64,000 nucleotides of DNA. Source: an uncultured Pseudomonadota bacterium (GTDB lineage Bacteria > Babelota > Babeliae > Babelales > RVW-14). The notes beneath the pieces are model-generated. The model ran no database searches, was not told the DNA's origin, and worked only from the letters and a program-made list of their open reading frames with translations. Every line of letters starts with the position of its first letter. Within the stretch, counting starts at the first letter, position 1. Shown here piece by piece: positions 6,725 to 58,183 of this stretch. Where the stretch lies: NCBI GenBank assembly GCA_964354855.1, contig CAYHBO010000001.1, forward strand, positions 31,045 to 95,044, read 5' to 3'. A program made the translations under genes and the position numbers.

Positions 6725-6744
6725 AGACCTCTCATTCGTGATTT

Positions 6745-16426: not shown

Positions 16427-16457
16427 AGAAAAATTAATTTTATTCAGGAATACTTAC

Positions 16458-17840: not shown

Positions 17841-17850
17841 GGAGCGCGCC

Positions 17851-19432: not shown

Positions 19433-20290
19433 TTACGCTGCAAGCAACAAGCCCATTTGATAATATATATTTAATCCAACAGAATCTAGCCTTTGTGACG
19501 CTATCACTCTAGCAGTTACATTAACAGGAGTTTCGCCATTACAAACAATATTTCGATTCGCCCCTGCAATAATTAATGTATGCATAATTTTTAACGCATC
19601 TTCATTTGCATGAACATCAACATTGGCAACAATATGCAACGCTGTTTCACCAAAACAATTTGTGTGATTAATAAAAGCTAGAATATCAGACCGTGAACAA
19701 AGCTGACGCACTTTTACCAAACTACCAACCAAGCAAGCATCTAAGAGTATATCCCCGAAAGAATTATCTTGAGAATCAAAAACGCCTTGTATTCTCAAAC
19801 ACTCACACACATCCTGGTCATTACAAGTTGTTACCGCAGAAACAAGAGAGACTCCTTGCTTACTGACAACTTGTAAGGCAGTTTTCCCCTCATGATTTTT
19901 AACATACACAGATGCCCGACCTTCTTTTATCAAAATAAAAGCTTTAGTCCATTGCCCACCCATTACAGCAAAATGTAACGCTGTATTGCCATCTTCATCT
20001 TTGGCATTAACCATAGCGCTTTCACTATGAACTATTGCTCGCAACTGTTCAACGTCACCAGACATTACCGCAACCATCAAAGGCGTCGTCCCTGTTCTAT
20101 GAGTTACCGCGAAATTTACCCCCGCATCAACTTGACGATAGAGATCTTTAGTTTGTTGATAATAAACAACCAAAACAGCATCAGTTTTTTGTCCAAATGC
20201 CCCTAAAGTATATGAATTAACATCCGGATTCATAGCATACATATTACTAATAAAACAAAGGCCAGTCGCAATTAACATTAATTTTTTCAT
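19433..20290 (-). CDS. secreted ankyrin-repeat protein
   Basis: Leader ...NMYAMNP. ANK motifs: GTTPLMVAVMSGDVEQL, DGNTALHFAVMGG, GKTALQV, GETALHIVA. Confidence 0.85.
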   Translation of the reverse strand: MKKLMLIATGLCFISNMYAMNPDVNSYTLGAFGQKTDAVLVVYYQQTKDLYRQVDAGVNFAVTHRTGTTPLMVAVMSGDVEQLRAIVHSESAMVNAKDEDGNTALHFAVMGGQWTKAFILIKEGRASVYVKNHEGKTALQVVSKQGVSLVSAVTTCNDQDVCECLRIQGVFDSQDNSFGDILLDACLVGSLVKVRQLCSRSDILAFINHTNCFGETALHIVANVDVHANEDALKIMHTLIIAGANRNIVCNGETPVNVTARVIASQRLDSVGLNIYYQMGLLLAA

Positions 20291-23990: not shown

Positions 23991-25448
23991 TCAACTTTTC
24001 GTCACCGGGTCAGGGATTAATAGAATATTCAACGGATCTTGCGGCCAGGTTCTGCCTGATGGTACCCATAAAAATCGCTTACCGGTACGCTCCTGAATCG
24101 ATCTTAATGGATAATCATAAACCTTCATAGCACAAGCATCATACGTTTCAGCAAGGATAATCTCAACACATCCCTCACTATTCAACTTAGAGCCTGATAC
24201 GGTAGACACGGTAAACACCGGTCCGTAATGTTGCATGTAAAATTGTGGGCTTTCACCAGAGACCACTTCTTTCCAGTCCAAAGGCCTGTTTTTAGGATCT
24301 TCAAATGGCTTTCGTAGCAAGTCTGCATCGATATTTATTTCTTTATCTCTGAACAACTTTAACACCGCAATAGAATCTTGATGGCCGCGAATAAGGGCAT
24401 CTACCTGTTGATTATTAAGTATACATTCAACGGCAAACAGATCCGCACTATGAATATCATTCCCACGATTAGATTTCGAAAATAATTTTCTACGCAAGCT
24501 TTCTTCGATTGCTTCATTATCACAATTTTGTTTAACCAATATGGCCCTTTCTGGATCATGATGAATGATATCCGTCCATAAGTAATGTGAAAAATAAACC
24601 CCTACAATCGGATTATAAAGATCTTTCAAAAAAATTGGTTTAAAGGAAGCCTGGCTACTCAATAATAGCTCCTTAGGATCAAATTTAGGCTCAGGAGCAC
24701 CGTGACAAAATTGAAGAATTGCACCCCCACAGCGCACATAGTGTGTCAATGCAAAACATGAGTAAAGTGTATCTAGTTGCTCAATAAGACCTTCAGGTTC
24801 ATTAAACAAATACTTATCCATAATTTCTCGGATGAGGCCTTTAGCTCCATAATATCTATTAATCTCTACCCATTCATGATTCCCGCGCAACAAAATAACA
24901 CGATCAAAATTAAGCATTTTAAGACAAAGCAAGAGAGCTAGGCATTCAACACTATATTTTGTTCTATCAACATAATCGCCAATAAAAATAAGAGAACATC
25001 CAGGGTTGAGCGTTAAATCTTCATTGAGCACTCCCTCAATAACCCAACGCCGCAACTGCCGCAATAACGTAAAATAAGATCCATGAATATCTCCAACGAC
25101 AAAAAGATGATCTTCTGGCGTTAAATGCCATGATGAAGCATGGCCAACATGGCCATCTTTATTGCTGATGCCAAAATCAGCAAGTTGCCTTTCTGTCTCT
25201 ATGATAAACATATCAATCAATGCAGAAAAATCTTTCTGATAAATAAGAGCATCCAGATGCTTATCTAACAATGGAATTTCTGGATAATTTTGTTCACTCC
25301 ACCATACCGTCTCTTCAAGTTCTTGTAGGGTTTTGAAATCATAGAAATCTTTAAGTTGCTTAAAATCATCAGGACCTGCAAGAAGGGCCGGATGCAGAGA
25401 AAGAAAGATAGCGAGAAGAAGTTGTGTAATTAGAAATTTAAATTTCAT
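23991..25448 (-). CDS. secreted PPP-family (calcineurin-like) Ser/Thr phosphatase, paralog A
   Basis: Signal peptide. GDIHG, GDYVDRT and LLRGNHE are the PPP signature GDxHG/GDxVDR/GNHE. Confidence 0.8.
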   Translation of the reverse strand: MKFKFLITQLLLAIFLSLHPALLAGPDDFKQLKDFYDFKTLQELEETVWWSEQNYPEIPLLDKHLDALIYQKDFSALIDMFIIETERQLADFGISNKDGHVGHASSWHLTPEDHLFVVGDIHGSYFTLLRQLRRWVIEGVLNEDLTLNPGCSLIFIGDYVDRTKYSVECLALLLCLKMLNFDRVILLRGNHEWVEINRYYGAKGLIREIMDKYLFNEPEGLIEQLDTLYSCFALTHYVRCGGAILQFCHGAPEPKFDPKELLLSSQASFKPIFLKDLYNPIVGVYFSHYLWTDIIHHDPERAILVKQNCDNEAIEESLRRKLFSKSNRGNDIHSADLFAVECILNNQQVDALIRGHQDSIAVLKLFRDKEINIDADLLRKPFEDPKNRPLDWKEVVSGESPQFYMQHYGPVFTVSTVSGSKLNSEGCVEIILAETYDACAMKVYDYPLRSIQERTGKRFLWVPSGRTWPQDPLNILLIPDPVTKS

Positions 25449-25501
25449 ATGAGGTGCTCAACTATTTTTTACTTCGTTCATAAAACATTCTTCGCAGCCA
25501 T

Positions 25502-25634
25502 ACGTCATCCTCGCGAACGCGGGGATCCAGGCCTTACTTACTTTTACAGACCTTCTAAAAACTTGTTAGAAAAGAAGTATAAAAATTTTAAAGTAGAAAA
25601 AAGTTCTGGATCCCCGCATTCGCGAGGATGACGT
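25502..25634 (+). repeat. PE1 element, full copy (intergenic between the two phosphatase genes)
   Basis: ACGTCATCCTCGCGAACGCGGGGATCCAGG ... CTGGATCCCCGCATTCGCGAGGATGACGT. Confidence 0.9.
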
Positions 25635-25715
25635 AGTCAAAAACCCAATTTCTCATAAAATTTCATAAAATCTCAAATCCTCAGAAGATATCGTTCTTTC
25701 TAAAAAAGTAACCGT

Positions 25716-27338
25716 TTATTGAGGCCAATCTTCAGGATTTTGTTGAGCAGAAGGCCACCGACCTGTAACCGTTCTGACTTCAGGTTCTACATCAGCAGCA
25801 GTTTCTCTTCGCTGCCGCATAAACCTATCTCCACCATATTCTTCATCTAAATCCCCAGTATGAGACAAGTCTAAAAGGCTAAAGGGAATATCTTCATCTT
25901 CACCACCTCGTCGCTGTAACCGCGCCAAATTACGTCTTGGCGGCAATGGCGTTAACGATCTATCCTGAGGTGAAAGATCTCTTACAGGCTCAATCACTAA
26001 TGGATCTTGAGGCCAAACATTGCCAGATGGTCGCCACCTAAAACAGTTATTCACGCGCTGATTATAAGGGAGCAAGGGATAATCATACACTTTCATCACA
26101 CATTTATCATAAGTTTTTGCAAGAATAATTTCTACACACCCCTCACTATCAATTTTTGATCCAGACGCCGCAGATAAGGTAAAAACAGGGCCATAGTTTT
26201 TCATATAAAATTCTGGATTACGACCCTCTACAACATCTACCCAGTTAAGTGGAGCATTTCTTGGATCAGTAAATGGATTAACCATTGTATCCGTATCAAT
26301 AATCACTTCTTTCTCTCTAAATAATTTTAATACTGCTATCATATCCTGATGCCCACGAATAAGAGCATCAACAAAGGTTGACTTAAGAATACGATCTATA
26401 GCAAATAAATCAGCACTAACCAAATCATGCCCTCGAGCAGAAGATGAAAATAAGTTTGCATTCAAGCTCGATTCAATAGCCAAATAATCACCTTGCTTTA
26501 GAAAAGCCTCTCTTGCTGGATCATGATGAATAATGTCGGTCCACAAGTAGTGTGAAAGATTAACATTTTTCGATTCTAATTCTTCTTTTTCAAGTAAAGA
26601 AAAAAACGAATCCTGACCCAATATTAATTCAATTGGAGGATTTTTTGGCTCAGGAGCCCCATGACAAAACTGCAACAGCGTACTGCCACAACCAACATAG
26701 AGCGTTAATGTAAAACATAAATACAATTGATCTAGCTGATCAATAACTTCTTGAGCCTCCCTAGAGTACTTATTTCTAATCTCTTGTGTAAAGCCATAAT
26801 CTGCATAAGAATTATTCATTGCAACCGATTCATGATTACCTCGTAATAACACAACCCGATCTTCATTAATTAATGCTAATAAAAGCATAATCGTTAAACA
26901 TTCTAAGCCGTACACTGTTCGATCAACATAATCACCAATGAAAACAAGTGAGTACCCCGAGAGAAGTCTTAAATCTTCCGTCATCACTCCTTCAAGAACC
27001 CAACGATCAAGTTGCCGCAACAATGAAAATAATGATCCATGAATATCTCCAACCACAAAAATTCGATGTTCAGGGCCTAGCACCCATCCCTGAGCATACC
27101 CAACCCCACCTGAAGCATTTGCGCCCTTAAGCTTACGCTGTATAACGCTTATAAACTCATCCATCAAGGCACAAAAGTCTTTTTTAGAAATAGAAATTCT
27201 TGTATTAGAGAAATGCGGAATTTCTGGATAGGTAGAAAAAAGCTGCCTGAGCCCAGAAACTGTTTTAAATTCGTCGGGAATGGCAAGTAAAGATGGTATG
27301 ACCAGTAAAAAAAAAAGGTTTAAAATTTTCAACCTCAT
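25716..27338 (-). CDS. secreted PPP-family Ser/Thr phosphatase, paralog B, with extended charged C-terminal tail
   Basis: GDIHG, GDYVDRT, LLRGNHE. Collinear with paralog A, plus about 85 extra C-terminal residues rich in R/E/D/P. Start placed at MRLKILNLFF. Confidence 0.8.
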   Translation of the reverse strand: MRLKILNLFFLLVIPSLLAIPDEFKTVSGLRQLFSTYPEIPHFSNTRISISKKDFCALMDEFISVIQRKLKGANASGGVGYAQGWVLGPEHRIFVVGDIHGSLFSLLRQLDRWVLEGVMTEDLRLLSGYSLVFIGDYVDRTVYGLECLTIMLLLALINEDRVVLLRGNHESVAMNNSYADYGFTQEIRNKYSREAQEVIDQLDQLYLCFTLTLYVGCGSTLLQFCHGAPEPKNPPIELILGQDSFFSLLEKEELESKNVNLSHYLWTDIIHHDPAREAFLKQGDYLAIESSLNANLFSSSARGHDLVSADLFAIDRILKSTFVDALIRGHQDMIAVLKLFREKEVIIDTDTMVNPFTDPRNAPLNWVDVVEGRNPEFYMKNYGPVFTLSAASGSKIDSEGCVEIILAKTYDKCVMKVYDYPLLPYNQRVNNCFRWRPSGNVWPQDPLVIEPVRDLSPQDRSLTPLPPRRNLARLQRRGGEDEDIPFSLLDLSHTGDLDEEYGGDRFMRQRRETAADVEPEVRTVTGRWPSAQQNPEDWPQ

Positions 27339-27535
27339 ATCTACCCCCCGTAGAAGAAACATCACATTTAATTAAAAATTACCCACATAAAAAGCATGCT
27401 TGTTTTAGTTTAAAAAAGTAAACGGTTACTCAATTACTCACAAAAACTCTCTATCTTAAACTGTTAACGCTTTCTTGCCATTTTGATTCATATGTGTAAG
27501 ATATTTCTTAGGTTTTTTTCCAAAGGAGTTCTATT

Positions 27536-30299: not shown

Positions 30300-32021
30300 T
30301 TACACCAATGTCGGTGTAATAAAAATCAACAGTTGTTTATCCTCAAGCTTCTTGCGTTTACCCTTAAAAAGCCATCCAATTACCGGAATCTCCTGAATCC
30401 ATGGCACCCCGGTATGAATAACATCTTTCGAGTTTTCGATAAGCCCACTGATCATGGTCGTCTGTCCGTCACACAACACTACTCGATTACTAGAGCGAGA
30501 CGTCATAATCGTGTAAGGAAATGATCCAAGCTGTGAAGTATTAGACGAACTTGAAATAGTTGCGGTACTGGCTTTAACAAAAGAATTTTGCACAAAAATA
30601 TCTAAGAAGATCGATTTCTGATCAGGCGCCACCGTCGGCTTAACTTTTATTTTCATCCCGATATCTTTATACCCAATCGTTGTAACATTGGTTGGGCTCC
30701 CCGCAACCGTCTCTTGCAACACGGTTGCCTGTGGCATTTCTTGTCCAACCAAAATCTCTGCACACTCCTGGCTTTTTACGAGCAGTGATGGCTTTAGAAT
30801 GGTTTCTAACTCATGCTTTGTTTCCGCAGCATTAAGCATAACATTTAACCGATTGGTACTCAGATTTTTATTTCCGAAAGAAAACGGAATTTGTACAGTT
30901 TTGATGCTAGAAATCGAAGTTGGAATAAAATTTAATGCCCACCCCAAAAGATTCTCAAAGCCGGACGGTTCACTTCCATTTTTTGTACCAACACCAATCC
31001 CTGCAAACTGAAAACCATTCTGAGAGATACTTGCACTACGATCATACATACCGGACCATTCAAAACCAATAGCCTCTTCAAAATCTTTTGATACCATAAC
31101 AATGCGTGCATCAATTCTCACTTGTGGCACATGCATATCAATTTCCTGTAGCGCTTTTTTGAAATCAATTACAAAGTTTTTTCTGCCACGACAAAAAATT
31201 TTACGTGATTCATCATCAAACACAATGTAATGACTTTTAATAAGAATATGGCCAACAATACCATTCCAAAGTTGCTCAATGCGCTTTTTAAATTCAGCAT
31301 TCCAATTTACATAGTGAATGGTAATGTAGTCGGCAACAGTATCCTGCTCGATCGATTTTTCAGCCTTCACTTTTAACTCTTCTATAGCTACATTTTGCTT
31401 AAGAATACGCCATACACCACGGTCATTAATCAACGCAAGTCGTGGAAGATTATTACTCAATAAAATTGAAAGCACCGCAGCTAAAGACGCATCATTGAAC
31501 GAAAAATTTCTGATATACCCATCAACATCGGCATCCATAACAAAATTAATATCGGTAAGCTTACCCACAAGTTCTATTGCCTTACGTAAACTTACTTCGT
31601 GTAATTTTATGGTTACTTTTTTTTCGGTTAACAAAATATCATCATACTGCTTTTCCAATAAGAGCCTGATCTCAGGAACCAAGAGATCTACAACTGCTTT
31701 GGTGGCAGCCTGCTGTTGCGTATTTCCGCGAGGACACTTCGTACAATTTTTATGTTTATTTTTTTTACGCTTTTTCTGGGCAGGCTTTTTGTCATAACAC
31801 TCTTCGTTTTCTTCATTTACCACACGCTCAACAATCGAATTTATGTTTTGAAGTTGCTTCTTTTCTTTCCGATCATACTCCTGTTTTGCAAGTAACGAAT
31901 TGGTTGGCGGAATGGTTATACCATAATGTTCATGCGGCCAGAAGTCTTCTTTCTGTTCTTGTTCATCAGCCCCAAGAACCGATACACCCATAAGAACGGC
32001 TAACAAAAACATTCTTTTCAT
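30300..32021 (-). CDS. pilQ: secretin (PilQ/GspD family)
   Basis: Signal peptide, an STN-like N-domain (VSLRKAIELVGKLTDINFVMD) and a secretin C-domain ending GVPWIQEIPVIGWLFKG......LLIFITPTLV. Confidence 0.85.
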   Translation of the reverse strand: MKRMFLLAVLMGVSVLGADEQEQKEDFWPHEHYGITIPPTNSLLAKQEYDRKEKKQLQNINSIVERVVNEENEECYDKKPAQKKRKKNKHKNCTKCPRGNTQQQAATKAVVDLLVPEIRLLLEKQYDDILLTEKKVTIKLHEVSLRKAIELVGKLTDINFVMDADVDGYIRNFSFNDASLAAVLSILLSNNLPRLALINDRGVWRILKQNVAIEELKVKAEKSIEQDTVADYITIHYVNWNAEFKKRIEQLWNGIVGHILIKSHYIVFDDESRKIFCRGRKNFVIDFKKALQEIDMHVPQVRIDARIVMVSKDFEEAIGFEWSGMYDRSASISQNGFQFAGIGVGTKNGSEPSGFENLLGWALNFIPTSISSIKTVQIPFSFGNKNLSTNRLNVMLNAAETKHELETILKPSLLVKSQECAEILVGQEMPQATVLQETVAGSPTNVTTIGYKDIGMKIKVKPTVAPDQKSIFLDIFVQNSFVKASTATISSSSNTSQLGSFPYTIMTSRSSNRVVLCDGQTTMISGLIENSKDVIHTGVPWIQEIPVIGWLFKGKRKKLEDKQLLIFITPTLV

Positions 32022-32023
32022 TA

Positions 32024-32326
32024 CTACCCAATCTCAACACGTTTAATCTTATTTTTCTTCATAAACTCAACATAATCCGTTGCAATTGTATGCAGCGTAT
32101 AACCTTTTATTTTATCCCCAACCCCCAACGTACGCTGCTTCTCACCATCCTGCACAAGAATGCCACGTAATTTTTTATACTGTACAACCCCGATAATATG
32201 AAAAAGCTTTTTGCGTTTTCGCTGCTGATCAACAGATATTGGAAAAGAAAAAGGGTCTCGAAGTTTTTTTGGGGTAGCAAAAATTGATGCAGACGCCACG
32301 AACAAGAATAAAACAGCCCTAATCAC
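32024..32326 (-). CDS. PilP-like pilus/secretin-associated protein
   Basis: 100 aa with a signal peptide, the RDPF motif (LRDPFSF), and a beta-rich segment GILVQDGEKQRTLGVGDKI.GYTL..I. Adjacent to the secretin gene. Confidence 0.5.
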   Translation of the reverse strand: MIRAVLFLFVASASIFATPKKLRDPFSFPISVDQQRKRKKLFHIIGVVQYKKLRGILVQDGEKQRTLGVGDKIKGYTLHTIATDYVEFMKKNKIKRVEIG

Positions 32327-32856
32327 ACGTCCCCCATATTTATTGAAAGATCAATCTGAAGAAGGCCATGCCCTCCTGATTGTACCGCAAGCCTGATTAC
32401 CACTATCGATAGTTTTTTTACCGCTATAAGTTCAAAAAAACGAAGCAAGTTGCTATACGAACCATTAAGACCCATCACAATCTCACCAGCAACCTTCGAT
32501 GTCACTGGTGGCGCAAACTGGTAGCAGATAAGCCCGGAATTTTTAAATACATGAAAGAGATCGTCAATAAGCCCTTGATGCTCTCCATAACTTTTATACT
32601 GCTCTTTTAGATCATGATATTGTGTCTTAAGTTTTTCATGAACGCCTACAGAATCAGTATATTTTATATGCTTCTCATGTAAATTCTTTAACAAGCTCTC
32701 ATGAGTATTTATGTCTATTTTTTTAGGATGAAGGAGGTGAAGATAGATGATACCGGTCGTCAATCCCAGTACCGTCATCGACAGCATAACGCGCTTAGGA
32801 AAATCAATCCCACGCAGGCCTGCTTTCATTTTTGATTCATGAAGCCAGAAGGACAT
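32323..32856 (-). CDS. PilO/PilN-like bitopic membrane protein (tentative)
   Basis: 177 aa with one TM segment, a coiled-coil and an alpha/beta C-terminus. Overlaps the PilP-like gene by 4 nt. Assignment rests on context only. Confidence 0.35.
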   Translation of the reverse strand: MSFWLHESKMKAGLRGIDFPKRVMLSMTVLGLTTGIIYLHLLHPKKIDINTHESLLKNLHEKHIKYTDSVGVHEKLKTQYHDLKEQYKSYGEHQGLIDDLFHVFKNSGLICYQFAPPVTSKVAGEIVMGLNGSYSNLLRFFELIAVKKLSIVVIRLAVQSGGHGLLQIDLSINMGDV

Positions 32857-32953
32857 ACATTTCCCATTAAGACGAATTTTCTAATCTTGCTGTAAGATAT
32901 GATGCTCAATAAACATAAGTAAATAATTTTAGAAATTTTTATTCTTCTCGAGA

Positions 32954-33685
32954 CTATATTTTATCAATTTCTTCTTCCCAAGCCCCCTGAGCATCTTCCG
33001 GATCTGGTTCAAAACGTCGCCTTAAAAGCTCATCTTTAAAGCCTTCAGGATTCTCATTACTTACCTGTTCTCCTTGAGCATAAATCTCTGCTTCGTCTGT
33101 CCCCGGAAGCCTATTTCTTAAACATTCTATATATCTCACCGCAAGAGCTTTATGATATGCATGCAGCAAGCGCCCCTCGCTTTGTGAATACGAATCAATC
33201 ATCTGAATCATCATTAGAAGACCTCCCAATATTTCTGCATTCTTAAAAAGAGAATAAAAAAAAGCATCATAAGCTTCTTCTTCATGTTTATTTATTAAAT
33301 CTCTTATCACCACACGAGCCTTATCCGATAATCGTACACCTATAATATTTCGAACAACCTCTATCAAATCAGTATCACTGGCACTTGCTTGAGTAGTCCT
33401 CGTTTTTCTACAAAGATCATCATAAATTGCGTTAACAATAGCATCATGTTGCTGTTCAGTCAGCTCAGTAACTTCTTGCTCTTCTTGTGGATGCGCTAAC
33501 GCAGGCAATAACACAGAGCAAGTTGAACCTGGTTGTTGAGGAGAGGATCTCAAGTAAGGCGATCTAACAGAACCCTTCGGCCATTGAGTCCCTTTTTTAC
33601 CAGACGGTTTAGGATTCATAGCACTCACACCACCACCGTAAGCCAAACAGAACATTATCAACATCAATATATTTTTTATCGTCAT
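32954..33685 (-). CDS. array paralog P1 (secreted, unknown function)
   Basis: Leader MTIKNILMLIMF...VSAMNP. Core motifs: IVNAIYDD, LIEVVRNIIGVRLSD, HEEEAYDAFF....NAEILGG, YHKALAVRYI. C-terminal motif FKDELLRRRF. Confidence 0.6.
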   Translation of the reverse strand: MTIKNILMLIMFCLAYGGGVSAMNPKPSGKKGTQWPKGSVRSPYLRSSPQQPGSTCSVLLPALAHPQEEQEVTELTEQQHDAIVNAIYDDLCRKTRTTQASASDTDLIEVVRNIIGVRLSDKARVVIRDLINKHEEEAYDAFFYSLFKNAEILGGLLMMIQMIDSYSQSEGRLLHAYHKALAVRYIECLRNRLPGTDEAEIYAQGEQVSNENPEGFKDELLRRRFEPDPEDAQGAWEEEIDKI

Positions 33686-33757
33686 AACACCACCCCCCTT
33701 GAGTTACTCGTTTTATAAAAAATCGATATTTAATGTACACCCCAGTAATTCAACACA

Positions 33758-34714
33758 TCAAGGCTTCTCACGTTTACGCATGAGACTAATGCCTTTAATT
33801 GCTAGTTCAAGCTGTTTTATTGAGTTAATAGCAGGGGGCCTTGGGGTTAAGCATTTTACAACTATTTCAGGAATAGCTTCGTATTGAGGCTTACGGCGCT
33901 GCTTAAAAAGGGTCTTGTTAAAGCTTTCTTGATCATTTTGGCGAAATTTTATCGCCTTACGATACTTTTTATCCTCATCCACCGTAAAGAATTTTGAACG
34001 AATGCCATTTATATTCCTTATTGCAAGAGCTTTATAAAATGCGCATGAAAACTTAGAATCTTTACATTCATGATAAGAATAAAGGTAAATATACTCCGCT
34101 ACCAGCATAATACCCCCAAGGGCCTCAGCATTATTTAAAACAGCATCAAAATAAAGATCATAAGCCTCTTCTTTGTGCTCTTTGATTAAAATTTCTATGT
34201 CTTCGATAGGTAATTGATTTTTTACAATTTTTTGAACCTCATCGATAAGAGCCGCACGATCATTACATCCTTCACAGCAGGCATTGCGAACTTCATGATC
34301 ATAAATAGCAGTAACAATAAACCCTCGCTGCTTACCATTCAGCAGAGCAAGAAGAGAGTTTTTTCTAGATGCTATTGAAGAAAAAGAGGTAATCTGTTGC
34401 TCTAATAAATCGAGTGATTCTTTTGATGGGATGTGAAGTTGCGGATCAGAAGTTTTATGATGATTAAAAATATTTTTGCCTTGGAAATGATGCGGGGGCC
34501 GATGATAAGCATCAGATCTTATAATAGGCAAATGAAAAGAATCACTTGAATCAGTTTTTTGTGGAGACCTTGACGAAATACCACAAGAAGAGGCATTAGA
34601 ACAAAATTTACGCGTAGACCGAGGACCTTGTTCAGATTGAGGCTTGCTGGGTTGCATGGCAGAGCTGAATTCACCATAAAACATCATCAATATAAATATA
34701 TTTTTTATTTGCAT
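33758..34714 (-). CDS. array paralog P2
   Basis: Leader MQIKNIFILMMF...SSAMQP. Core motifs: IVTAIYDH, LIDEVQKIV, HKEEAYDLYF....NAEALGG, FYKALAIRNI. C-terminal motif FNKTLFKQRR. Confidence 0.6.
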   Translation of the reverse strand: MQIKNIFILMMFYGEFSSAMQPSKPQSEQGPRSTRKFCSNASSCGISSRSPQKTDSSDSFHLPIIRSDAYHRPPHHFQGKNIFNHHKTSDPQLHIPSKESLDLLEQQITSFSSIASRKNSLLALLNGKQRGFIVTAIYDHEVRNACCEGCNDRAALIDEVQKIVKNQLPIEDIEILIKEHKEEAYDLYFDAVLNNAEALGGIMLVAEYIYLYSYHECKDSKFSCAFYKALAIRNINGIRSKFFTVDEDKKYRKAIKFRQNDQESFNKTLFKQRRKPQYEAIPEIVVKCLTPRPPAINSIKQLELAIKGISLMRKREKP

Positions 34715-34762
34715 AACACCCCCCCCAGTTATTAATTTACAAAAAATTTAGTCAAAATAAAT

Positions 34763-35266
34763 TTATCGATTCACTGACTTTATAAAATCTTCATTTGTGT
34801 ACAAAGGCTTCACTTCAAGATCATTCAGTACAGCATCATAAGCAGCAAGAAGTTTTAACTCCCCTTCACCTGGCTTGCACCTAGATAAGATAAGACATAC
34901 TTCCCAATGTTTGAGGTCTGGATTACGGTGCAGTGTATTAAGAAATCTTTTTTTTAAATAATTAAAGAAAACATCGAAAACATATGTATTAACCAAAAGA
35001 ACTGCTTCTTGAAGGCTAAACCCCTCTTTTACAATACTGTCCAAAAGAACTCTTTTTGGATCAGTGTTTATAACCATTATCGCTTCCCCAAAGCGCAACA
35101 AACAGTAACCCTTGATAATTGCCTTAATTTTATCAATCTTATCCGGCACCAGCGTTCGAATAAATTCGGGAATTTCCACAGCAGGCTGCTCTGGTTGATT
35201 CATTGCTATAATATTGCCAAAGAAGCTACTCACAAAAGTCACGTAAAGAATATTTTTAATCTTCAT
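34763..35266 (-). CDS. array paralog P3 (divergent)
   Basis: Leader MKIKNILYVTFV...IIAMNQP. LLDSIVKEGFSLQEAVLLVNTYVFDVFFNYL aligns with P4 and P1. Confidence 0.55.
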   Translation of the reverse strand: MKIKNILYVTFVSSFFGNIIAMNQPEQPAVEIPEFIRTLVPDKIDKIKAIIKGYCLLRFGEAIMVINTDPKRVLLDSIVKEGFSLQEAVLLVNTYVFDVFFNYLKKRFLNTLHRNPDLKHWEVCLILSRCKPGEGELKLLAAYDAVLNDLEVKPLYTNEDFIKSVNR

Positions 35267-35298
35267 AACTACTCCCCTTAAGTTAATTTGATAAAAAA

Positions 35299-35781
35299 TT
35301 ATGCGTTAGATTCAGCAAATTCTATATAAATATCAAGAAGAAAAGCTATGTCGAGACTAGGCCTACAAGCTTTAAGAACTTTAATTTTATCTTCATGATC
35401 GTTAGTAGTATTCAATCTAAGCACAAGATATTCACGGTATACAACAGGAGCATAAACACTAACTAATTCAGACACTTGATCATCAGAAAGAGAATTTCCA
35501 AAGCCTCCTTTGACAACATCTACAAGAGACAGTGAACGATGAGGCCCTTTTGGATAAAATCTTGAATGAAGTGCATCTCTCAAGGTTTTCTTAACTGCTG
35601 TTTTTTGATCTTTAGATAGCGCCTTAATCCACTCAGCAGCCATTGGCGATGCTGGTTCTTGAAAAGAATTATTTGGGACAACAAGTTGTCCATCTAGTCC
35701 AGTAGGACGTTGCTCCATCGCAACAATATTACCAGTAAAACCACAAGCGAGAATTAACATCATAATATTTCTTATCGTCAT
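35299..35781 (-). CDS. array paralog P4 (divergent)
   Basis: Leader MTIRNIMMLILA...IVAMEQ. LVDVVKGGFGNSLSDDQVSELVSVY aligns with the P1 segment LIEVVRNIIGVRLSD. Confidence 0.55.
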   Translation of the reverse strand: MTIRNIMMLILACGFTGNIVAMEQRPTGLDGQLVVPNNSFQEPASPMAAEWIKALSKDQKTAVKKTLRDALHSRFYPKGPHRSLSLVDVVKGGFGNSLSDDQVSELVSVYAPVVYREYLVLRLNTTNDHEDKIKVLKACRPSLDIAFLLDIYIEFAESNA

Positions 35782-35953
35782 AGAAAGATCCTTATAATTA
35801 ATTTATTTTTGTACGCTATTCTTCGATTGTCGCTGGTACAAGGCGATTTAAGGAAATGCAGTATATTTTTAATCGACCTACTCGTCAATAGGTTTCGCTA
35901 ACAAATTGTAATTATCAAGTTTTTTTAACAGATTGTTCTTGTAGAACCTGAAC

Positions 35954-36688
35954 TCATCGTTTGTATAAAGCTCCATAGTATTCAACTGGACTAACAACGC
36001 TCAAGTTTCCTGCAGTTTCATATTTTTGCTCATCTATTTTTTCAAACACTCTCCCACCTTCACAAAGAAGCAGATTGTCTCTTACCATCGCAAGAGGCTT
36101 CCATAAGACTCCCCATCCTTTGGGTACAATTTTTTTTATAACTTCATCTCTAAAGAAATCCGCCACCTCTCTTACTAATTGACGCCCGCCTAAATCTCTA
36201 GCATTAATAAATGTATCTCGAATAAAATTGGTGATTGCTTTTTTCTTAGCTTCAAGAATGACCCTGGAGCCATCTTCATCCTCGATTACATCACTTACTA
36301 GCCCCTGCACCAATCTATTTAATTCTTCTACTTCTGGACCCATTCTGAGCAAAACAGTAGAGACATATTGATGAAATAATACCTGATCAAAACTTTTAAC
36401 CTCTTCTTCTTGATTAAAAAATTTCATAATTTCACCATAATAATAACCATGAAGAACATCAATGAGTGGTTTATCCAAGGCTCCCAAGCGAGTTGGGTTC
36501 TCTTCACTTGATTCTAAGGACCACCCCGGCGTTTTAACCGCAACAACGCCCACCCCTTCTTCGTCTGTAACCGTTATGCCTTCTTGTGTTAATTCCCGAT
36601 TTAAGTTCTCGTCTGCTGACTGCATGGCAATAACATTTGATCCAAAGCCCCACAACCAAAACAGTACCGCTAAGTTTTTTATTTTCAT
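35954..36688 (-). CDS. array paralog P5
   Basis: Leader MKIKNLAVLFWL...VIAMQS. FINARDLGG aligns with the NAE.LGG motif. Its ATG overlaps the P6 stop codon (ATGA). Confidence 0.55.
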   Translation of the reverse strand: MKIKNLAVLFWLWGFGSNVIAMQSADENLNRELTQEGITVTDEEGVGVVAVKTPGWSLESSEENPTRLGALDKPLIDVLHGYYYGEIMKFFNQEEEVKSFDQVLFHQYVSTVLLRMGPEVEELNRLVQGLVSDVIEDEDGSRVILEAKKKAITNFIRDTFINARDLGGRQLVREVADFFRDEVIKKIVPKGWGVLWKPLAMVRDNLLLCEGGRVFEKIDEQKYETAGNLSVVSPVEYYGALYKR

Positions 36689-37287
36689 CCTCCCCCTCCA
36701 CCACCCATTTTTGATCGTCTTCGCAATAAGCGCTCTCCAAACTCGTTGCTATCTCTGGCCTTAAGTCTTTCTACTCGTTCACTTTTTACCCAATCTTGCT
36801 CTGTCTTAGGTCGATTATAAAGCGCTCGTATAACCGAATGATTCAGCACTTCATCATACATTGGTAATAACCATTGATCGCTTGGTTTAAACCGCAGCCA
36901 CGCATCAAAAACATATTCATACCCACTCACAACTTTCGCAACAAGATCAATCCCTCCAAGCTCTTCTGCATTAAGAAGAACGTCGGTAAAAAATTGAAAA
37001 TAAGCCTCAGGTCGATAGCCATTTCTCAAAGTAAAAATCGCATCAGGAGTTAACCTCAATTCAGGAACACTGGCTTTTATGTCTTGCTCAAGCTTTACTC
37101 GAGCATCAGGGTCCCTTTTATACAATCGAATTATATCATCATGAAGAGCGGTAATTATTTTATGTGTTTGAATCTTAGAATGAGCCTGTACCCATGCCGG
37201 TCGCTTATCTTGATTAACCTGCATAGCAAATATAAATTGATAGGTAGAAGAAACAACGCAGCACAAGAGAATATTTTTTATCTTCAT
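36685..37287 (-). CDS. array paralog P6
   Basis: Leader MKIKNILLCCVV...IFAMQ. Motifs: IITALHDD, PEAYFQFFTDVLLNAEELGG. C-terminal FGERLLRRRS followed by a Gly6 tail. Confidence 0.6.
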   Translation of the reverse strand: MKIKNILLCCVVSSTYQFIFAMQVNQDKRPAWVQAHSKIQTHKIITALHDDIIRLYKRDPDARVKLEQDIKASVPELRLTPDAIFTLRNGYRPEAYFQFFTDVLLNAEELGGIDLVAKVVSGYEYVFDAWLRFKPSDQWLLPMYDEVLNHSVIRALYNRPKTEQDWVKSERVERLKARDSNEFGERLLRRRSKMGGGGGG

Positions 37288-37352
37288 AACGCCTCTCTCC
37301 AGTAATCAAACGCCTTTTAACGCATTTTTATGACATTATTTAATTTTTCAGC

Positions 37353-37455
37353 ACGTCATCCTCGCGAATGCGGGGATCCAGACCTTCGAATAAAATAATC
37401 CAAAGACCAACAAGAAAGAAGTAAGACCTGGATCCCCGCATTCGCGAGGATGACG
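37353..37455 (-). repeat. PE1 element, full copy, spacer inverted (intergenic between P6 and pilB)
   Basis: ACGTCATCCTCGCGAATGCGGGGATCCAG ... CTGGATCCCCGCATTCGCGAGGATGACG. Confidence 0.9.
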
Positions 37456-37490
37456 CCTCAAAGAACTAAAATAACCTATTAATAGGTAAC

Positions 37491-39197
37491 TTATATTTCA
37501 TTAGCCTCTTCAAAATGCGCCACACCTAGAACCTCTTCAATTGTGGTAATTCCCAAAGCAACACAACGAATACCATCATTAATCAATAGCGTCATCCCTT
37601 GTTCTAGCGCTTTATTTTTAATGGTTACCGCATCGGCTTTTTGAATAATCAACGTAGCAATCTGATCGGTAATTTCCATAATTTCGAACAATGGCAAGCG
37701 TCCTCGGTAGCCTTTATTAAGACACTCATCACACCCAACCGGCTCATAAAAAGTTATTCCTTTTGCGGTTACTGGTGTTAAACCAATGCGCAACAGCGTA
37801 TCTGAGGTTGGAATATATGCTCGCTTACATTTTTTACACAATCTTCGTACAAGCCGCTGAGAGATAACACAGATCAACGAAGAGGCAATTAAAAATGGCT
37901 CAATGCCCATATCAATCAATCGCGTCACCGTTGCGGGAGCACTGTTTGTATGAATTGTACTAAGCACCAAGTGACCGGTTAATGCTGCTTGCGTTGCGAT
38001 CTGCGCCGTTTCGGTATCTCGAATTTCCCCGATCAGTACAATGTCAGGATCTTGTCGCAAAATTTCACGCAATGCAGTCGCAAACGTTAGCCCAATTTTA
38101 GCGTTAACGTTCACCTGGTTAATCCCATTAATGGTATATTCAACCGGATCTTCGACGGTAACTAAGTTAACATCAGGCTCATTAAGCCGAGAAAGTATCG
38201 AATAAAGCGTTGTGGTTTTCCCGGAACCAGTTGGTCCACTGACCATAATAATCCCGTTAGGGCGCTGAATAATGTTCACCACTTTATCATAATCTGTTTT
38301 ACTAAGATTAAGATTCTCAAGCTCTTGCGTGCCGGTTGATTTGTACAACAAGCGCATTACCACTTTTTCACCAAAGTTTGTCGGCAGCACCGATACCCGA
38401 AGATCGAGTGGCTTGTCGGCAACCTTAATCATGATCCGTCCACTTTGAGGAAGCCGCTTTTCAGCAATATTCATGTTCGACATAATTTTTATACGAGAAA
38501 CAATGGCGCCTTGAAATCGTTTGGGGGGGATCATCCGTTGATACAAGTTGCCATCAATACGATAGCGCACCCGTAACTCTTTTTCGTATGCTTCAATGTG
38601 AATATCAGAAGCCCCTTCTTTAGCCGCTTGAAACAAAAGATGGTTTACCAATTTAACAATGGGAGCTTCATTGGCCATCTCCATGATATCTTTTTCTTCA
38701 ATATCCCCCATGATGCCAAATTCAGCCTCTTCTTCTTCTTTAAGTTCTTCCATCATCTCCCCACCGGTCTCAAGCGGGTAATATTTATTGATGGCATCAT
38801 TAATGCTAATTTCAGTTGCAACCGCATAACGAACATCGCCCGACATCAATAATGCAAGGTCATCAAGTGGTTGTAGATCCCGCGGGTTTGCGGTAACAAT
38901 AGTTTTTTGGCCTTCAAACATGATTGGGATAACGCAATTTTGACGTAGAAATTTCAACGGGGTCTTTTTTAGTAGGCTTACATCGGCCATTTGCTCAGTC
39001 ACCATTTCAATGAACGGAACTTCAACCTGGGCTGCGAGCGCACGTGCAAGATCAATTTTAGAAACGAGCCCTTGCTCAAGTAGTAATTGCCCAAGAAGCT
39101 TGCCTGTTTTCTTTTGCTCTTTTAAACATTCCTGTAACTGTTCTTCGCTGATAATATTGAGGTCTATAAGAAGATCGCCGATACGTTTTCGCAACAT
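37491..39197 (-). CDS. pilB: type II secretion / type IV pilus assembly ATPase (GspE/PilB family)
   Basis: MshEN-like N-domain, Walker A GPTGSGKTTTLYS, Asp/His boxes and the tetracysteine CKKC...CDEC. Confidence 0.9.
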   Translation of the reverse strand: MLRKRIGDLLIDLNIISEEQLQECLKEQKKTGKLLGQLLLEQGLVSKIDLARALAAQVEVPFIEMVTEQMADVSLLKKTPLKFLRQNCVIPIMFEGQKTIVTANPRDLQPLDDLALLMSGDVRYAVATEISINDAINKYYPLETGGEMMEELKEEEEAEFGIMGDIEEKDIMEMANEAPIVKLVNHLLFQAAKEGASDIHIEAYEKELRVRYRIDGNLYQRMIPPKRFQGAIVSRIKIMSNMNIAEKRLPQSGRIMIKVADKPLDLRVSVLPTNFGEKVVMRLLYKSTGTQELENLNLSKTDYDKVVNIIQRPNGIIMVSGPTGSGKTTTLYSILSRLNEPDVNLVTVEDPVEYTINGINQVNVNAKIGLTFATALREILRQDPDIVLIGEIRDTETAQIATQAALTGHLVLSTIHTNSAPATVTRLIDMGIEPFLIASSLICVISQRLVRRLCKKCKRAYIPTSDTLLRIGLTPVTAKGITFYEPVGCDECLNKGYRGRLPLFEIMEITDQIATLIIQKADAVTIKNKALEQGMTLLINDGIRCVALGITTIEEVLGVAHFEEANEI

Positions 39198-40713: not shown

Positions 40714-41781
40714 CTACCGTAATGGGGTAGGATCTTTTCTACATAAAGGGCACGTAGGATTACTCTTTAAGCAATCGTTAATACACTTTTTATGAAACTG
40801 ATTTTTGCAACAGTTAGTAAAGACAACATTCTTTACAAGCGACTCAAGACAAATAGGACATATATCACTTTCAGCCCCCGCAACAACCCCAGAAGAAGTA
40901 CCACTTTCTGCTTCTTGAGTAAGAGTAACAATAGCCGCTGTTAATTCAATAATCTTTTCGGAAAGTCGCGCTGAAGAGGAAAGAAGATTTTTATTCTCTT
41001 CTTTTTGTTTCTGAAGAACAGCTTTAACCTGATTGTATTTAGTAATTTTTGGTTCAAGAACTTTCTTTTTATATTCTTCATAACAAGATTGAAACTCATG
41101 ATGATTTCCTATTCTTTGAACACATTCTGCAACAGGAATAAAGGCATCTTCAAGTTTCTTTACCATAACAGCTATCTGTGGCTGTAAGCCTTCAATTTTA
41201 GTTTTAATTCCTTGCACATCAACCTTTGTTTCTACAAATTTAGCGGCAATTGAACCCTTGTTTTCCGACAACTGCTTCTTAAGTTCTTCGCTTATCTTTG
41301 ACGCTTGAACTCTTAATTTTTTCAAGTCTCTGTAGGCCACATAAAGAGAGGCTTCCCCTGGGTAGCTTTTTTTCGCATACGCCACCAAGTCTTCATTCTT
41401 TAATGGCAATTTTCCTGGAATAGATTCAACGAATTTTTTTGCATCATCAAGCTGTTTTGCAATATCATTATGCAAGGATTCAAACACACCACGCTCTTGA
41501 TTTTCTTTCCACTCAACTGTTTGAGGAAGTACCGCTAAACAGGTCAAGCCCCCAGCAAATAGCCCACAAATTGAAGCCCAAAGCATTTCTTTTGTGCCAA
41601 TAGTCTTCTCTTTTTTATATTTATCCCAAGCAAGCTTTCCACATAATCCCGCAAGCCCTACTCCGGCTGAAATACCAAATACTGCATTTTTACTTACATC
41701 TATACTTGGACTTGTTTGTCCTGCACAAGAAAGCATAAATAATAAAATAAGCGCTTTAATTCGTCTATAATTAAATAACAT
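40714..41781 (-). CDS. membrane-anchored coiled-coil protein with C-terminal RING-H2-like zinc finger
   Basis: Leader plus 2 TM segments and a long coiled-coil. The C-terminus CPICLESLVKNVVFTNCCKNQFHKKCINDCLKSNPTCPLCRK (about 40717-40860) matches the eukaryotic RING-H2 pattern C-x2-C...C-x-H-x-F-H-x2-C-I..W-L.....CP-x-CR. The H4 position is N, and an extra adjacent Cys is present. Confidence 0.75.
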   Translation of the reverse strand: MLFNYRRIKALILLFMLSCAGQTSPSIDVSKNAVFGISAGVGLAGLCGKLAWDKYKKEKTIGTKEMLWASICGLFAGGLTCLAVLPQTVEWKENQERGVFESLHNDIAKQLDDAKKFVESIPGKLPLKNEDLVAYAKKSYPGEASLYVAYRDLKKLRVQASKISEELKKQLSENKGSIAAKFVETKVDVQGIKTKIEGLQPQIAVMVKKLEDAFIPVAECVQRIGNHHEFQSCYEEYKKKVLEPKITKYNQVKAVLQKQKEENKNLLSSSARLSEKIIELTAAIVTLTQEAESGTSSGVVAGAESDICPICLESLVKNVVFTNCCKNQFHKKCINDCLKSNPTCPLCRKDPTPLR

Positions 41782-41824
41782 AATAAATCCCCTAAAAACC
41801 CACCAACCCTAGATACTATAATTC

Positions 41825-42712
41825 TTAACCAAATTTTAGTCTTAACTTATTTATATCTTCTTGTAGTTGTCTTATTTGTGCAAATTTAACCTTATCCTCA
41901 TCCCGAAGACGGGCATTTGTTTCAGTTATATTTTTAAGATCAGCTTCAAGCTCATCATACTTTGCTATTTTTTGCTCAAGCTCATGTTGCTCACAATGAA
42001 ATGCATAATATGAATGACCCTGTATTTCTTTTATACACGAAGTAACATCACCAATAACAGCATTAAGACTTGCTATCAAAGCCGGCAATTCTTTAACTAA
42101 AGCATCAATGCGCGACTTAAAGCCCTGAATGTTAAATTTTGAAGAAGTAAACTTAGGCATAATCGTCGCTGTTATTTCTTCCTGTTGTTTTACCAACGCA
42201 TCATGTATCTTTACCACTTGTTCTCTTAATGGATTCAAATTTTTATCAGCTAAACACAGCGACCATGATTCTTTATAAACTCTAGCAGCATAAGCTCGAA
42301 TATCTTCTTTAACTCTTGGTAGCTTTGCTCGTATATTTTGAGTAAGAAGTTTTGCCTCTTCAAGTTTTTTTTCACCAGAACTACAAAAGCTCTCAAAAAG
42401 CTCTTGCTCTTTTTGTTCTTGCCATTCAACAGATTGCGGCAATAAAACGGCACAGGTAATACCCCCTAAAAACAAGCCACAGAAAGAACCCCACAGCATT
42501 TCTTTCATGCCAATAGTTTTACTATTTTTAAACTTATCCCAAGCAAGTTTCCCACATAGCCCTAAAAAGCCTGCTCCAGCGGAAATACCAAATGCCGTAT
42601 TTTTAGTTAAACCAGCCATTAAACCATTTTCTGATTCCGACCTTATCTGGCTAGCTAAAGAAAGCACGAGCATCAAAACAACAGCTTTAATTAGTTTATG
42701 ATTGAATAACAT
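41825..42712 (-). CDS. RING-less paralog of the 40714-41781 protein
   Basis: The N-terminal roughly 120 aa and the 5' UTR are nearly collinear with the neighbour (MLFNHKLIKAV... versus MLFNYRRIKAL...). It ends in coiled-coil with no zinc finger. The ORF-track extension to 42778 reads through a PE2 repeat. Confidence 0.6.
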   Translation of the reverse strand: MLFNHKLIKAVVLMLVLSLASQIRSESENGLMAGLTKNTAFGISAGAGFLGLCGKLAWDKFKNSKTIGMKEMLWGSFCGLFLGGITCAVLLPQSVEWQEQKEQELFESFCSSGEKKLEEAKLLTQNIRAKLPRVKEDIRAYAARVYKESWSLCLADKNLNPLREQVVKIHDALVKQQEEITATIMPKFTSSKFNIQGFKSRIDALVKELPALIASLNAVIGDVTSCIKEIQGHSYYAFHCEQHELEQKIAKYDELEADLKNITETNARLRDEDKVKFAQIRQLQEDINKLRLKFG

Positions 42713-42749
42713 AATAAATCTCCTAAAAAATCCCACCAACCCTAAATGT

Positions 42750-42787
42750 CGCTCGTCCTGAGGAGCCCGTAAAGGCATCTCGAAGGA
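42750..42787 (+). repeat. PE2 element (right module), in the 5' leader region of the RING-less paralog (opposite strand)
   Basis: GCTCGTCCTGAGGAGCCCGTAAAGGCATCTCGAAGGAT. Confidence 0.8.
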
Positions 42788-48564: not shown

Positions 48565-48846
48565 TCATTTAACTTAAGATCTTTTTCTTGGAGATATAAA
48601 AAAAGAATTATCAACAACCCACGTAGTCTATCGGAACTTTTCCAAAAAGTGAAGGCATACCGAGTACGCTTTAAGACATTTCTCATTTTTAATCTTTTCT
48701 TATTGAAAAAAAACTTTTTCTCTCCTTCTTCTTAAATATAAATATTTATATTTAGTAGTAGTAGTAGGCTCGGCGAAAATTGTTGATAACTCAAAAAAAA
48801 ATCAAAATTATATCGTTCTATAACGCGTTATCAACCGGTTTTGAAT

Positions 48847-48901
48847 TGTTGATAACTTGTGGATAACTTGTTGATAACTTGTGGATAACTTGTTGATAAC
48901 T
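48847..48901 (-). repeat. five tandem 11-bp units TTGT[T/G]GATAAC (DnaA-box-like, complementary orientation)
   Basis: Read directly. Units at 48847, 48858, 48869, 48880 and 48891, alternating the TGTTGATAA and TGTGGATAA forms. Confidence 0.9.
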
Positions 48902-48997
48902 TTTTAAGTCTTTCATTTAATCGTGCTATAAGCCTTATTCAATGGATAATTCTCTATAATAACTACCCAATAGACCTTTTCATGACAAGAAAAAAAG

Positions 48998-49042
48998 TTA
49001 TCAACAAGTTATCCACAAGTTATCAACATAGTTATCAACAAT
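48998..49042 (+). repeat. four 11-bp units GTTATC[A/C]ACAA, inverted relative to 48847-48901
   Basis: Read directly. Units at 48998, 49009 (perfect TTATCCACA), 49020 and 49032. Confidence 0.9.
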
Positions 49043-49238
49043 GAAATTTTCCCTATTTATTTCAACCTGAAACATTTAAAGATTAGATGTAATTTTTATT
49101 ATCTGAAGTTAAAAAGTTATTTATAATGGCTTATAAGTCATTAATTTCTATTAGTATATTGATCAAGGGTGGATAAATGTCCTAGGATGGTGAAGATAAG
49201 CAATTGGGCTTAAAAACGAATTATCCTAGGGGGATGCA

Positions 49239-58164: not shown

Positions 58165-58183
58165 ACATAAGGGCTCAAATGGT

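Follow-up and report, generated by a model that had tools for sequence, protein, structure and literature searches.

Why should six tandem genes for orphan proteins with export-type leaders lie between the assembly ATPase and the secretin of a pilus or secretion machine? The question is raised by the array P6 to P1 (32954-37287, minus strand) in the window, the whole 64,000-nt stretch of DNA analysed here; coordinates are window positions unless another locus is named. Ten consecutive minus-strand genes occupy 30300-39197, in the order ATPase, P6 to P1, PilO-like protein, PilP/GspC-HR-like protein and secretin. The answer favoured here, with a probability of roughly 0.5, is that the array proteins are Sec-exported, non-core cargo of the co-encoded secretin/ATPase machine. 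Their Sec-type leaders and the same-strand position between the ATPase and secretin genes agree with what is expected of substrates of type II secretion systems (T2SS), namely a periplasmic intermediate that depends on Sec or Tat and, often, linkage to the T2SS genes. The array comprises the following features, in which a slash stands for the predicted cleavage site.

36685-37287, minus strand: P6, 200 aa; leader MKIKNILLCCVVSSTYQFIFA/MQ; all-helical core; basic tail LLRRRSK, then Gly6
35954-36688, minus strand: P5, 244 aa; leader MKIKNLAVLFWLWGFGSNVIA/MQ; acidic N-terminal extension; core with NARDLGG
35299-35781, minus strand: P4, 160 aa; leader MTIRNIMMLILACGFTGNIVA/ME; short and divergent, with only the N-terminal half of the core
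34763-35266, minus strand: P3, 167 aa; leader MKIKNILYVTFVSSFFGNIIA/MN; the most divergent of the six
33758-34714, minus strand: P2, 318 aa; leader MQIKNIFILMMFYGEFSSA/MQ; S/P/H-rich low-complexity N-terminal region of ~80 aa; core; basic tail
32954-33685, minus strand: P1, 243 aa; leader MTIKNILMLIMFCLAYGGGVSA/MN; S/P/Q-rich N-terminal region; core; LLRRRF tail
36685-36705, minus strand: Gly6/Shine-Dalgarno (SD) site; P6 Gly6 codons GGT GGT GGA GGG GGA GGA, doubling as the SD sequence of P5, with an ATGA stop/start overlap

All six open reading frames (ORFs) listed by the first-pass annotation, which was made from the sequence alone, are present on the same strand at these positions. Its account of the P6/P5 junction can also be seen in the sequence: the two genes overlap by ATGA, and the Gly6 codons (GGTGGTGGAGGGGGAGGA) stand immediately 5' of the P5 ATG as a GGAGG-rich SD sequence. 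Overlaps of the ATGA type occur as well at 3477 and at 4229-4232 in L003, one of two close relatives introduced below. G-rich SD sequences precede the other five array genes, and the upstream regions show no further conservation. Spacing within the cluster ranges from -4 to 203 bp. Public gene calls give P6 as 179 aa from M22 and P1 as 236 aa from an internal Met, thereby removing all or part of the signal peptide and masking the leader in two of the six genes. The longer forms of P6 and P1 have strong SD sequences and leaders that match those of the other four. Low-complexity N-terminal extensions are found in P1, P2 and P5, and several members end in a basic cluster.

The leader was described at first pass as M-[KTQ]-I-[KR]-N-[IL], a hydrophobic core and A-M-[QNE], and this pattern, which looks like a signal peptide, is found in every member. 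All six start with M-x-I-[KR]-N-[IL] and continue with 14-17 mostly hydrophobic residues up to A-M-[QNE]. The leader is not due to chance, because a six-frame scan of the window for M-x-I-[KR]-N-[ILVMF] returns the array ORFs and otherwise just two opposite-strand fragments of 6 and 30 aa. The n-region carries K or R at position 4 in all six; position 2 is K in P6, P5 and P3, T in P4 and P1, and Q in P2. From N5 to the cleavage Ala there are 14-17 residues, with G/N/S/T/Y/Q breakers within the last 6. The cleavage-site sets (I-F-A/M, V-I-A/M, I-V-A/M, I-I-A/M, S-S-A/M and V-S-A/M) are consistent with the -3/-1 rule of von Heijne, under which a small or aliphatic residue stands at -3 and Ala, Gly or Ser at -1. 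The mature parts are hydrophilic (grand average of hydropathy -0.02 to -0.63), and no second hydrophobic segment was found in them. By their anatomy, the leaders fit cleavable Sec signal peptides that signal peptidase I would cut at A/M.

Other readings of the leader were rejected. Lipoproteins processed by signal peptidase II, such as secretin pilotins, are excluded by the Met at +1 in all six and by the lack of a Cys or lipobox at the site; no twin-arginine motif was found in the array leaders. A type IV pilin or pseudopilin does not fit either: there is no G/F..E motif, the hydrophobic segment comes before the predicted cut, and what remains as mature protein is hydrophilic. True pilin-like N-termini do occur after pilB in other Babeliales, such as L007, L008 and L010. 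Gene conversion of the leader was dismissed: conservation ends after the first ~18 nt, synonymous differences occur within this stretch, and upstream of the genes just the SD sequence is shared.

The idea that the leader is a family-specific sorting signal was rejected in part, since A/T-M-[QNE] endings also occur on unrelated proteins of the window and of Babeliales loci. In the window, leaders ending in A-M (one in T-M) plus a polar residue are found on unrelated proteins at 98-568, 4647-5594 and 19433-20290, the last two being ankyrin-repeat proteins with A/T-M-[QN] leaders. Similar A-M-type leaders are encoded at L008 6522-7385, L011 3046-3882 and 16444-17799, and L012 1141-1455. The A-M cleavage-site preference may be typical of the phylum. 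The protein at 98-568 (leader MKIKKL...LIAMQ) was considered as a family member and discarded, its match being confined to the leader (12 bits). An ORF at 565-966 overlaps it by 4 nt and begins with an apparent leader tail, MLVGAQDGLVAMQ; this suggests that the gene, part of another small secreted pair, is truncated at its 5' end or was given the wrong start.

Behind the leader, P1, P2, P5 and P6 are clear paralogs (P1-P2, 83 bits, E=5e-22; P1-P6, E between 1e-8 and 6e-9, depending on the query). The mature part of P4, with the leader removed and the protein excluded from training, matches the family profile at E=2e-6, which supports its membership; in the same leave-out test, mature P3 reaches only E=0.18. 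A sub-profile of P3, P4 and L2_b aligns with the long members in hhalign at 83% probability (E=9e-6, 114 collinear columns), and P3 is tied to the family by this profile-profile match together with its leader and position. The core motifs reported at first pass are real, but they are carried by subsets rather than by all six. EAY..FF....NA..LGG occurs in P1, P2 and P6 and is degenerate in P5, YKALA.R is confined to P1 and P2, and the shorter P3 and P4 lack the LGG motif and the C-terminal part. Conserved positions are hydrophobic, with the addition of N-A and G-G in a helix-turn; no conserved residues of catalytic type stand out among the members.

None of the six has a match at threshold in Pfam or NCBIfam, and the best hit of a sequence-profile search against PDB (E=0.03) is not significant, in keeping with the earlier statement that no member holds a known domain. 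AlphaFold2 models, built from the shallow family alignment and rated reasonably confident, are entirely helical with a central helix of 41-46 residues. The P1 core reached a predicted local distance difference test (pLDDT) score of 76.8 and a predicted template modelling (pTM) score of 0.73; for mature P6, with 9 helices, the values are 82.9 and 0.81. Foldseek found no analogue of the P1 core in PDB and BFVD or of P6 in PDB (best E ~0.9, TM-score <=0.35). The profile and structure searches that had been proposed thus leave the core without a match to any characterised family. The array domain would be a binding module and not an enzyme.

The best Pfam match, P1 residues 161-203 against TetR_C_30, has E=2.5e-4 and 21.7 bits (cut-off 26.3), and several TetR structures appear in the Foldseek list with TM-scores of 0.26-0.35. 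This faint likeness to C-terminal helical bundles of the TetR family was rejected as generic helical-bundle noise: it lies below all thresholds, and TetR proteins possess a DNA-binding helix-turn-helix domain, whereas the array proteins lack one and carry an export leader.

How widely is the family distributed? Among 185,579 species genomes, the closest relatives of the window's PilB come from metagenome-assembled genomes (MAGs) labelled Babeliales, TM6 or Babeliaceae (56-72% identity). RING and ankyrin proteins bearing signal peptides are encoded in the window too, and together these findings place the organism in the Dependentiae, which agrees with the host-dependent bacterium postulated at first pass. 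Dependentiae (TM6) are widespread obligate parasites of protists. An exhaustive hidden Markov model (HMM) search with a six-member profile against 1.84 billion representatives of ~15 billion proteins returned 11 proteins: the six of the window and five from two close relatives. No relation to other Dependentiae proteins was detectable in this search. Every ORF of the window and of 18 Babeliales loci was also searched, and no members were found outside the arrays; a Joint Genome Institute metagenome scan with the P1 orthologue alignment found none. A word-indexed search returned no more than three family proteins with a 13-sequence alignment and nothing but P1 itself with P1 as the sole query; the distribution claim rests on the exhaustive HMM search and not on this one. 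The family is accordingly undescribed, as had been proposed, with no matches in Pfam, NCBIfam or PDB, and it is not scattered, every known member lying at a single locus in three genomes.

In the two relatives, L002 and L003 (PilB 88% and 92% identical), the array lies between pilB/gspE and the genes for the PilO-like protein, the PilP-like protein and the secretin, exactly as in the window. It comprises six genes in the window, five in L003 (one split in two) and three in L002. The first array gene of L002 (11730-12464) was not accepted as a demonstrable member, since it reaches E=0.87 against a window-only profile and has no BLAST match without its leader. In L004 and L005 (PilB 71-72% identical), the array is missing, and the genes for the PilO-like protein, the PilP-like protein and the secretin begin ~110 bp after pilB. 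Because these genomes have the cluster without it, the array is a recent insertion into an ancestral pilB-pilO-pilP-secretin operon; and because the closest genomes without the array keep the cluster intact, its products are not core parts of the machine. The expected linkage to pilB and pilQ stands in so far as all 11 members are found there in three genomes, but it is inherited linkage, the whole neighbourhood being syntenic.

Some irregularities were seen in L003 (assembly GCA_040384425.1). One array gene (4229-4889) and the pilO-like gene (6235-6779) are each split into two ORFs, and the secretin gene is interrupted by X/N runs, the result of either pseudogenisation or faulty assembly. This assembly's contig number, >9000, suggests that the bacterium was a passenger in a larger, possibly eukaryotic, project.

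The empty junction of L004 and L005 also decides a claim that did not hold, namely that the array occupies the slot where pilM and pilN usually sit. With only ~110 bp between pilB and the pilO-like gene in the closest array-less genomes, nothing pilM- or pilN-like was ever there. Like PilM and PilN of type IVa operons (pilMNOPQ), the array genes share a strand with a pilO-like gene and directly precede it, and I-[KR]-N-[IL] faintly recalls the INLLP motif of PilN, which is no more than a lead. PilN has this motif in the cytoplasm, then a transmembrane (TM) anchor and a periplasmic ferredoxin-like domain. In the array proteins, however, no cytoplasmic spacer separates motif and hydrophobic segment, and the 14-17-residue stretch with its G/N/S breakers and AxA-type site points to a signal peptide of the cleavable type rather than to a TM anchor, for which it is too short. 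Their mature domain is modelled as all-helical and not as the ferredoxin-like fold of PilN and PilO, and copy number varies, down to absence in outgroups. Neither PilM nor PilN domains are recognised (no Pfam or NCBIfam matches, including PF05137), nor is the prepilin signature G/F...E5. Highly diverged PilN/PilM-type alignment proteins or pilin-like subunits are therefore very improbable, a reading largely refuted.

Comparison of the three genomes shows both turnover of copies and rapid divergence. P1 is conserved in all of them and always adjoins the pilO-like gene (L002 13022-13627, 78 bits; L003 5569-6162, 79 bits), and P2 is a duplicate of P1 in the window lineage. P6 has an orthologue at L003 5012-5524 (72 bits), and P5 is closest to a triplicated L003 group (2836-3477 and 3477-4232, 40 bits each). 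Identity between the three genomes is 31-36% for array orthologues, compared with 88-92% for PilB, 70-77% for the secretin and 68-73% for Skp and LpxD. The PilO-like protein is equally fast, with 26% identity between relatives; the PilP-like protein shows 40-61%. Between the window and L003, the nonsynonymous distance (dN) is 0.73-0.74 for array orthologues, 0.05 for PilB and 0.16 for the secretin, so that the array exceeds PilB ~14-fold. The synonymous distance (dS) between the three genomes runs from 1.3 to >3 (saturated) and is undefined for two pairs, which makes the nominal dN/dS of 0.2-0.6 unreliable. Of the proposed fast diversification, the high divergence (dN 0.73 vs 0.05 for PilB) is confirmed; positive selection is not, with dS saturated and nominal dN/dS below 1. 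With arrays that are absent or have 3, 5 or 6 copies, the locus shows neatly, and on a small scale, how an orphan family arises and turns over inside an operon.

Such divergence raises the question of whether the ORFs, or part of them, are mechanical ORFs or duplicates in decay and not functional genes. Compared with the other members, P3 and P4 are truncated, and one L003 copy is split into pieces of 109 and 97 aa. All six, on the other hand, are intact with strong SD sequences, gene finders call them in public assemblies, orthologues have been kept across saturated dS with nominal dN/dS below 1, and the AlphaFold2 models are confident. It is hardly credible that they are not genes.

The divergence and the position also bear on the possibility that the array proteins are periplasmic accessory parts of the machine (species-specific adaptors, chaperones or secretin-associated factors) and not its cargo. 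The genes are embedded between those for the ATPase and for the alignment proteins and secretin, P1 and its orthologues adjoin the pilO-like gene in all three genomes, and the neighbouring PilO-like and PilP-like parts evolve fast too, with the identities given above. Yet copy number varies from 3 to 6, membrane anchor and lipobox are both absent, and there is no sequence or fold similarity to solved components of T2SS or type IV pili (T4P). In the nearest outgroups the pilB-pilO-pilP-secretin cluster is intact and has no array genes. The first-pass annotation had allowed for surface or accessory components beside substrates; the accessory role is now disfavoured and must be considered quite unlikely.

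The genes around the array, and a palindromic element within the cluster, are as follows.

37491-39197, minus strand: PilB/GspE-type assembly ATPase, first gene of the cluster; Pfam T2SSE 1.9e-137, MshEN (N-terminal domain) 5e-12
37354-37455, no strand assigned: palindromic element with perfect 28-nt arms (37354-37381 and 37428-37455) and a 46-nt spacer, within the 203 bp that separate pilB from P6
32323-32856, minus strand: PilO-like bitopic protein; conserved N-terminus M[SP]FW.HES, one TM segment, periplasmic domain
32024-32326, minus strand: PilP/GspC-HR-like small periplasmic protein; 4-nt overlap with the pilO-like gene
30300-32021, minus strand: secretin (PilQ/GspD family), last gene of the cluster and convergent with prs; Pfam Secretin 2e-35

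The identities of the ATPase and the secretin are certain as to family. In NCBIfam, the ATPase scores 620 bits with GspE and 606 with PilB, both slightly under the cut-offs, and the secretin 174 bits with PilQ and 140 with GspD, both below cut-off. The other two assignments are weaker. The PilO-like protein has no Pfam match; a profile of five orthologues finds Myxococcus xanthus PilO (3jc8) as its best PDB match (E=0.0035, collinear). Sub-threshold matches of the PilP-like protein are GspC in NCBIfam (E=0.002) and T2SSC in Pfam (E=0.04), and its best PDB profile match is the GspC HR domain 3oss (E=0.26). Although the PilO-like protein shows only 17-26% identity among the window, L002, L004, L005 and L006, its cytoplasmic N-terminus M-[SP]-F-[WR]-x-H-x-S is nearly fixed. 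By analogy with the PilN N-terminus, which binds PilM, the motif may serve to dock a partner in the cytoplasm.

Is the array expressed together with the machine? No terminator-like site was found on the minus strand between 29900 and 39500, and promoter-like matches are not above shuffled expectation. One such site, at 35888-35860, lies in the 172-bp gap (35782-35953) upstream of P4, and sites of this kind are not enriched over shuffles. As the genes share one strand, with no terminator-like site and one translationally coupled pair, the array is probably co-expressed, and presumably co-transcribed, with the ATPase and secretin genes.

The palindrome said to bound the array on the pilB side is real. 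As an RNA hairpin it would have a folding energy of -72 kcal/mol (z = -11.5), and it has no U-tail. Its arms have 13 matches in the window, making up 6-7 elements, against 0 expected. Dispersed copies with arms CGTCATCCTCGCGAATGCGGGGATCCAG, 40-76 nt apart, lie at 15395-15502, 17915-18009, 25503-25633, 37354-37455, 55586-55687 and 58059-58211. Some of them stand inside the 5' parts of mechanical ORFs and translate as RHPRE[SGC]GDP, and the dispersed palindrome is reminiscent of Rickettsia palindromic elements. At the pilB/P6 junction it is absent from L002 and L003, where the gaps are <25 bp. Being a dispersed repeat that both relatives lack at this site, it was inserted later and does not belong to the design of the array. 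Scans of the region for Rfam families, tRNAs and tandem repeats returned nothing relevant.

This genus-level orphan family arose in an ancestor shared by the three Babeliales genomes, in the interval that separates pilB/gspE from the genes for the PilO-like protein, the PilP-like protein and the secretin. Tandem duplication, with gain and loss of copies, has since led to the present six, five and three genes, including the P1/P2 duplication in the window and the triplication specific to L003. If the array proteins are indeed cargo of the machine, the following course may be envisaged. The products would be small, soluble, all-alpha-helical proteins that Sec carries to the periplasm, where signal peptidase I would cut at A/M and they would fold into a compact helical domain. 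They could leave the cell through the co-encoded secretin by a route resembling type II secretion and act at the bacterial surface or in a host compartment, like the signal-peptide ankyrin proteins of the same genome. Signal-peptide cleavage, secretin-dependent export and a host-directed function are steps that we infer. Published background is in line with this proposal: in Chromulinavorax, 44% of coding sequences have signal peptides, enriched in ORFans and in ankyrin proteins regarded as effectors (PMC6561590). Ankyrin proteins of the window bear leaders of the kind found in the array, and at the distant Babeliales locus L009 four signal-peptide ankyrin paralogs stand in tandem right after pilB.

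Several points weigh against this proposal. To our knowledge, T2SS substrates have no recognisable sequence signal and are defined by machine-dependent release. The pilB/pilOPQ synteny of the array is limited to three close relatives with collinear neighbourhoods. The -72 kcal/mol hairpin between pilB and P6 and the 172-bp gap before P4 may each break the transcription unit, and neither conserved catalytic-looking residues nor eukaryote-like domains indicate a host target. Exported proteins are, moreover, abundant in this group: signal-peptide-like N-termini were scored by a crude heuristic on 139 of 311 ORFs (~45%) in Babeliales loci vs 142 of 818 in other phyla. The window also contains three more sets of tandem paralogs, none of them linked to secretion genes. 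They comprise three unknown proteins (15314-19365, 32-36% identity), two signal-peptide Metallophos phosphatases (23991-27365, 54%) and two membrane or secreted proteins, one with a C-terminal RING finger (40714-42778, 41%). Tandem duplication of exported, eukaryote-like proteins is a general habit of the genome. Since signal peptides and tandem paralogs are so common, a secreted array beside pilB could be a coincidence.

The location may then be incidental: lineage-specific Sec-exported ORFans (periplasmic, envelope-bound or released in outer-membrane vesicles), duplicated at a permissive spot with no tie to the machine. The frequency of signal-peptide-like N-termini and the other tandem sets speak for it, as does the inheritance of the linkage among close relatives. 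L006 carries an unrelated Mrr-type nuclease gene at the pilB/pilO junction, so this junction tolerates insertions. For Chromulinavorax, release by way of outer-membrane vesicles has been proposed (PMC6561590), which also counts for an incidental location. However, all 11 known members lie at one locus in three genomes and none elsewhere. The genes have kept to the operon strand; they are closely spaced, possess strong SD sequences and show translational coupling, and the array has been retained and expanded inside an operon whose downstream pilO-P-Q genes need expression. An incidental location is thus possible but somewhat unlikely. Were it true, the array would add another rapidly evolving family of secreted ORFans to a phylum known to abound in them.

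As a family confined to an ATPase/secretin operon, the array supplies named candidates with which to test whether the machine is a secretion system. Pili have not been observed in Babela (PMC4776705, PMC6561590). A bolder version of the proposal, which we regard as rather speculative and unlikely, holds that a family with a helical fold not seen before originated, perhaps de novo, in the ~110-bp pilB-pilO spacer of a recent ancestor and was amplified under host-parasite conflict into a dedicated cargo cassette of a T2SS/T4P hybrid machine. If correct, the cassette would provide the first concrete candidate substrates of the hybrid type-II-secretion/type-IV-pilus route of Dependentiae.

What is new at this locus is the family itself, an orphan for which no homologue or structural analogue was found. 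Its kind is known: tandemly amplified, lineage-specific, Sec-dependent secreted proteins of a host-dependent bacterium, linked to T2SS genes. T2SS exoproteins can be encoded beside their own T2SS genes, as in Klebsiella oxytoca, where the gene for pullulanase PulA adjoins the pul operon. With exoproteins of the PulA type, the array would share a Sec signal peptide, periplasmic folding, linkage and co-regulation with a GspE-type ATPase and a secretin, and dispensability for assembly. Those exoproteins, however, are single enzymes with recognisable domains, whereas the array is a multi-copy orphan helical family inside the operon whose export through the secretin is only surmised. The signal-peptide ORFan and ankyrin proteins of Dependentiae (Chromulinavorax destructans, PMC6561590) resemble it in phylum, leader type, lineage specificity and frequent tandem copies. 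They differ in that the array is without a eukaryote-like domain and sits at one operon locus rather than being scattered.

A comparable arrangement was noticed in a distant Babeliales MAG, RS_12_2 (L009 11880-17023), where pilB is directly followed by four tandem signal-peptide paralogs. They have the near-identical leader MKNLKR[KN][IL]IFILSLAFGLNFISN, a stretch resembling a nuclear localisation signal, KRKREYNPKEEPSSKKRKL (read in three copies), and ankyrin repeats (Pfam, first copy only).

Away from the array, the window holds a cluster of 12 DnaA-box-like sites at 48608-49176, three of them perfect (TTATCCACA), in arrays with 11-nt spacing. The cluster is intergenic, follows nusA, coincides exactly with the sign change of the GC skew and lies 11-16 kb from the array. 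It is likely the chromosomal replication origin.

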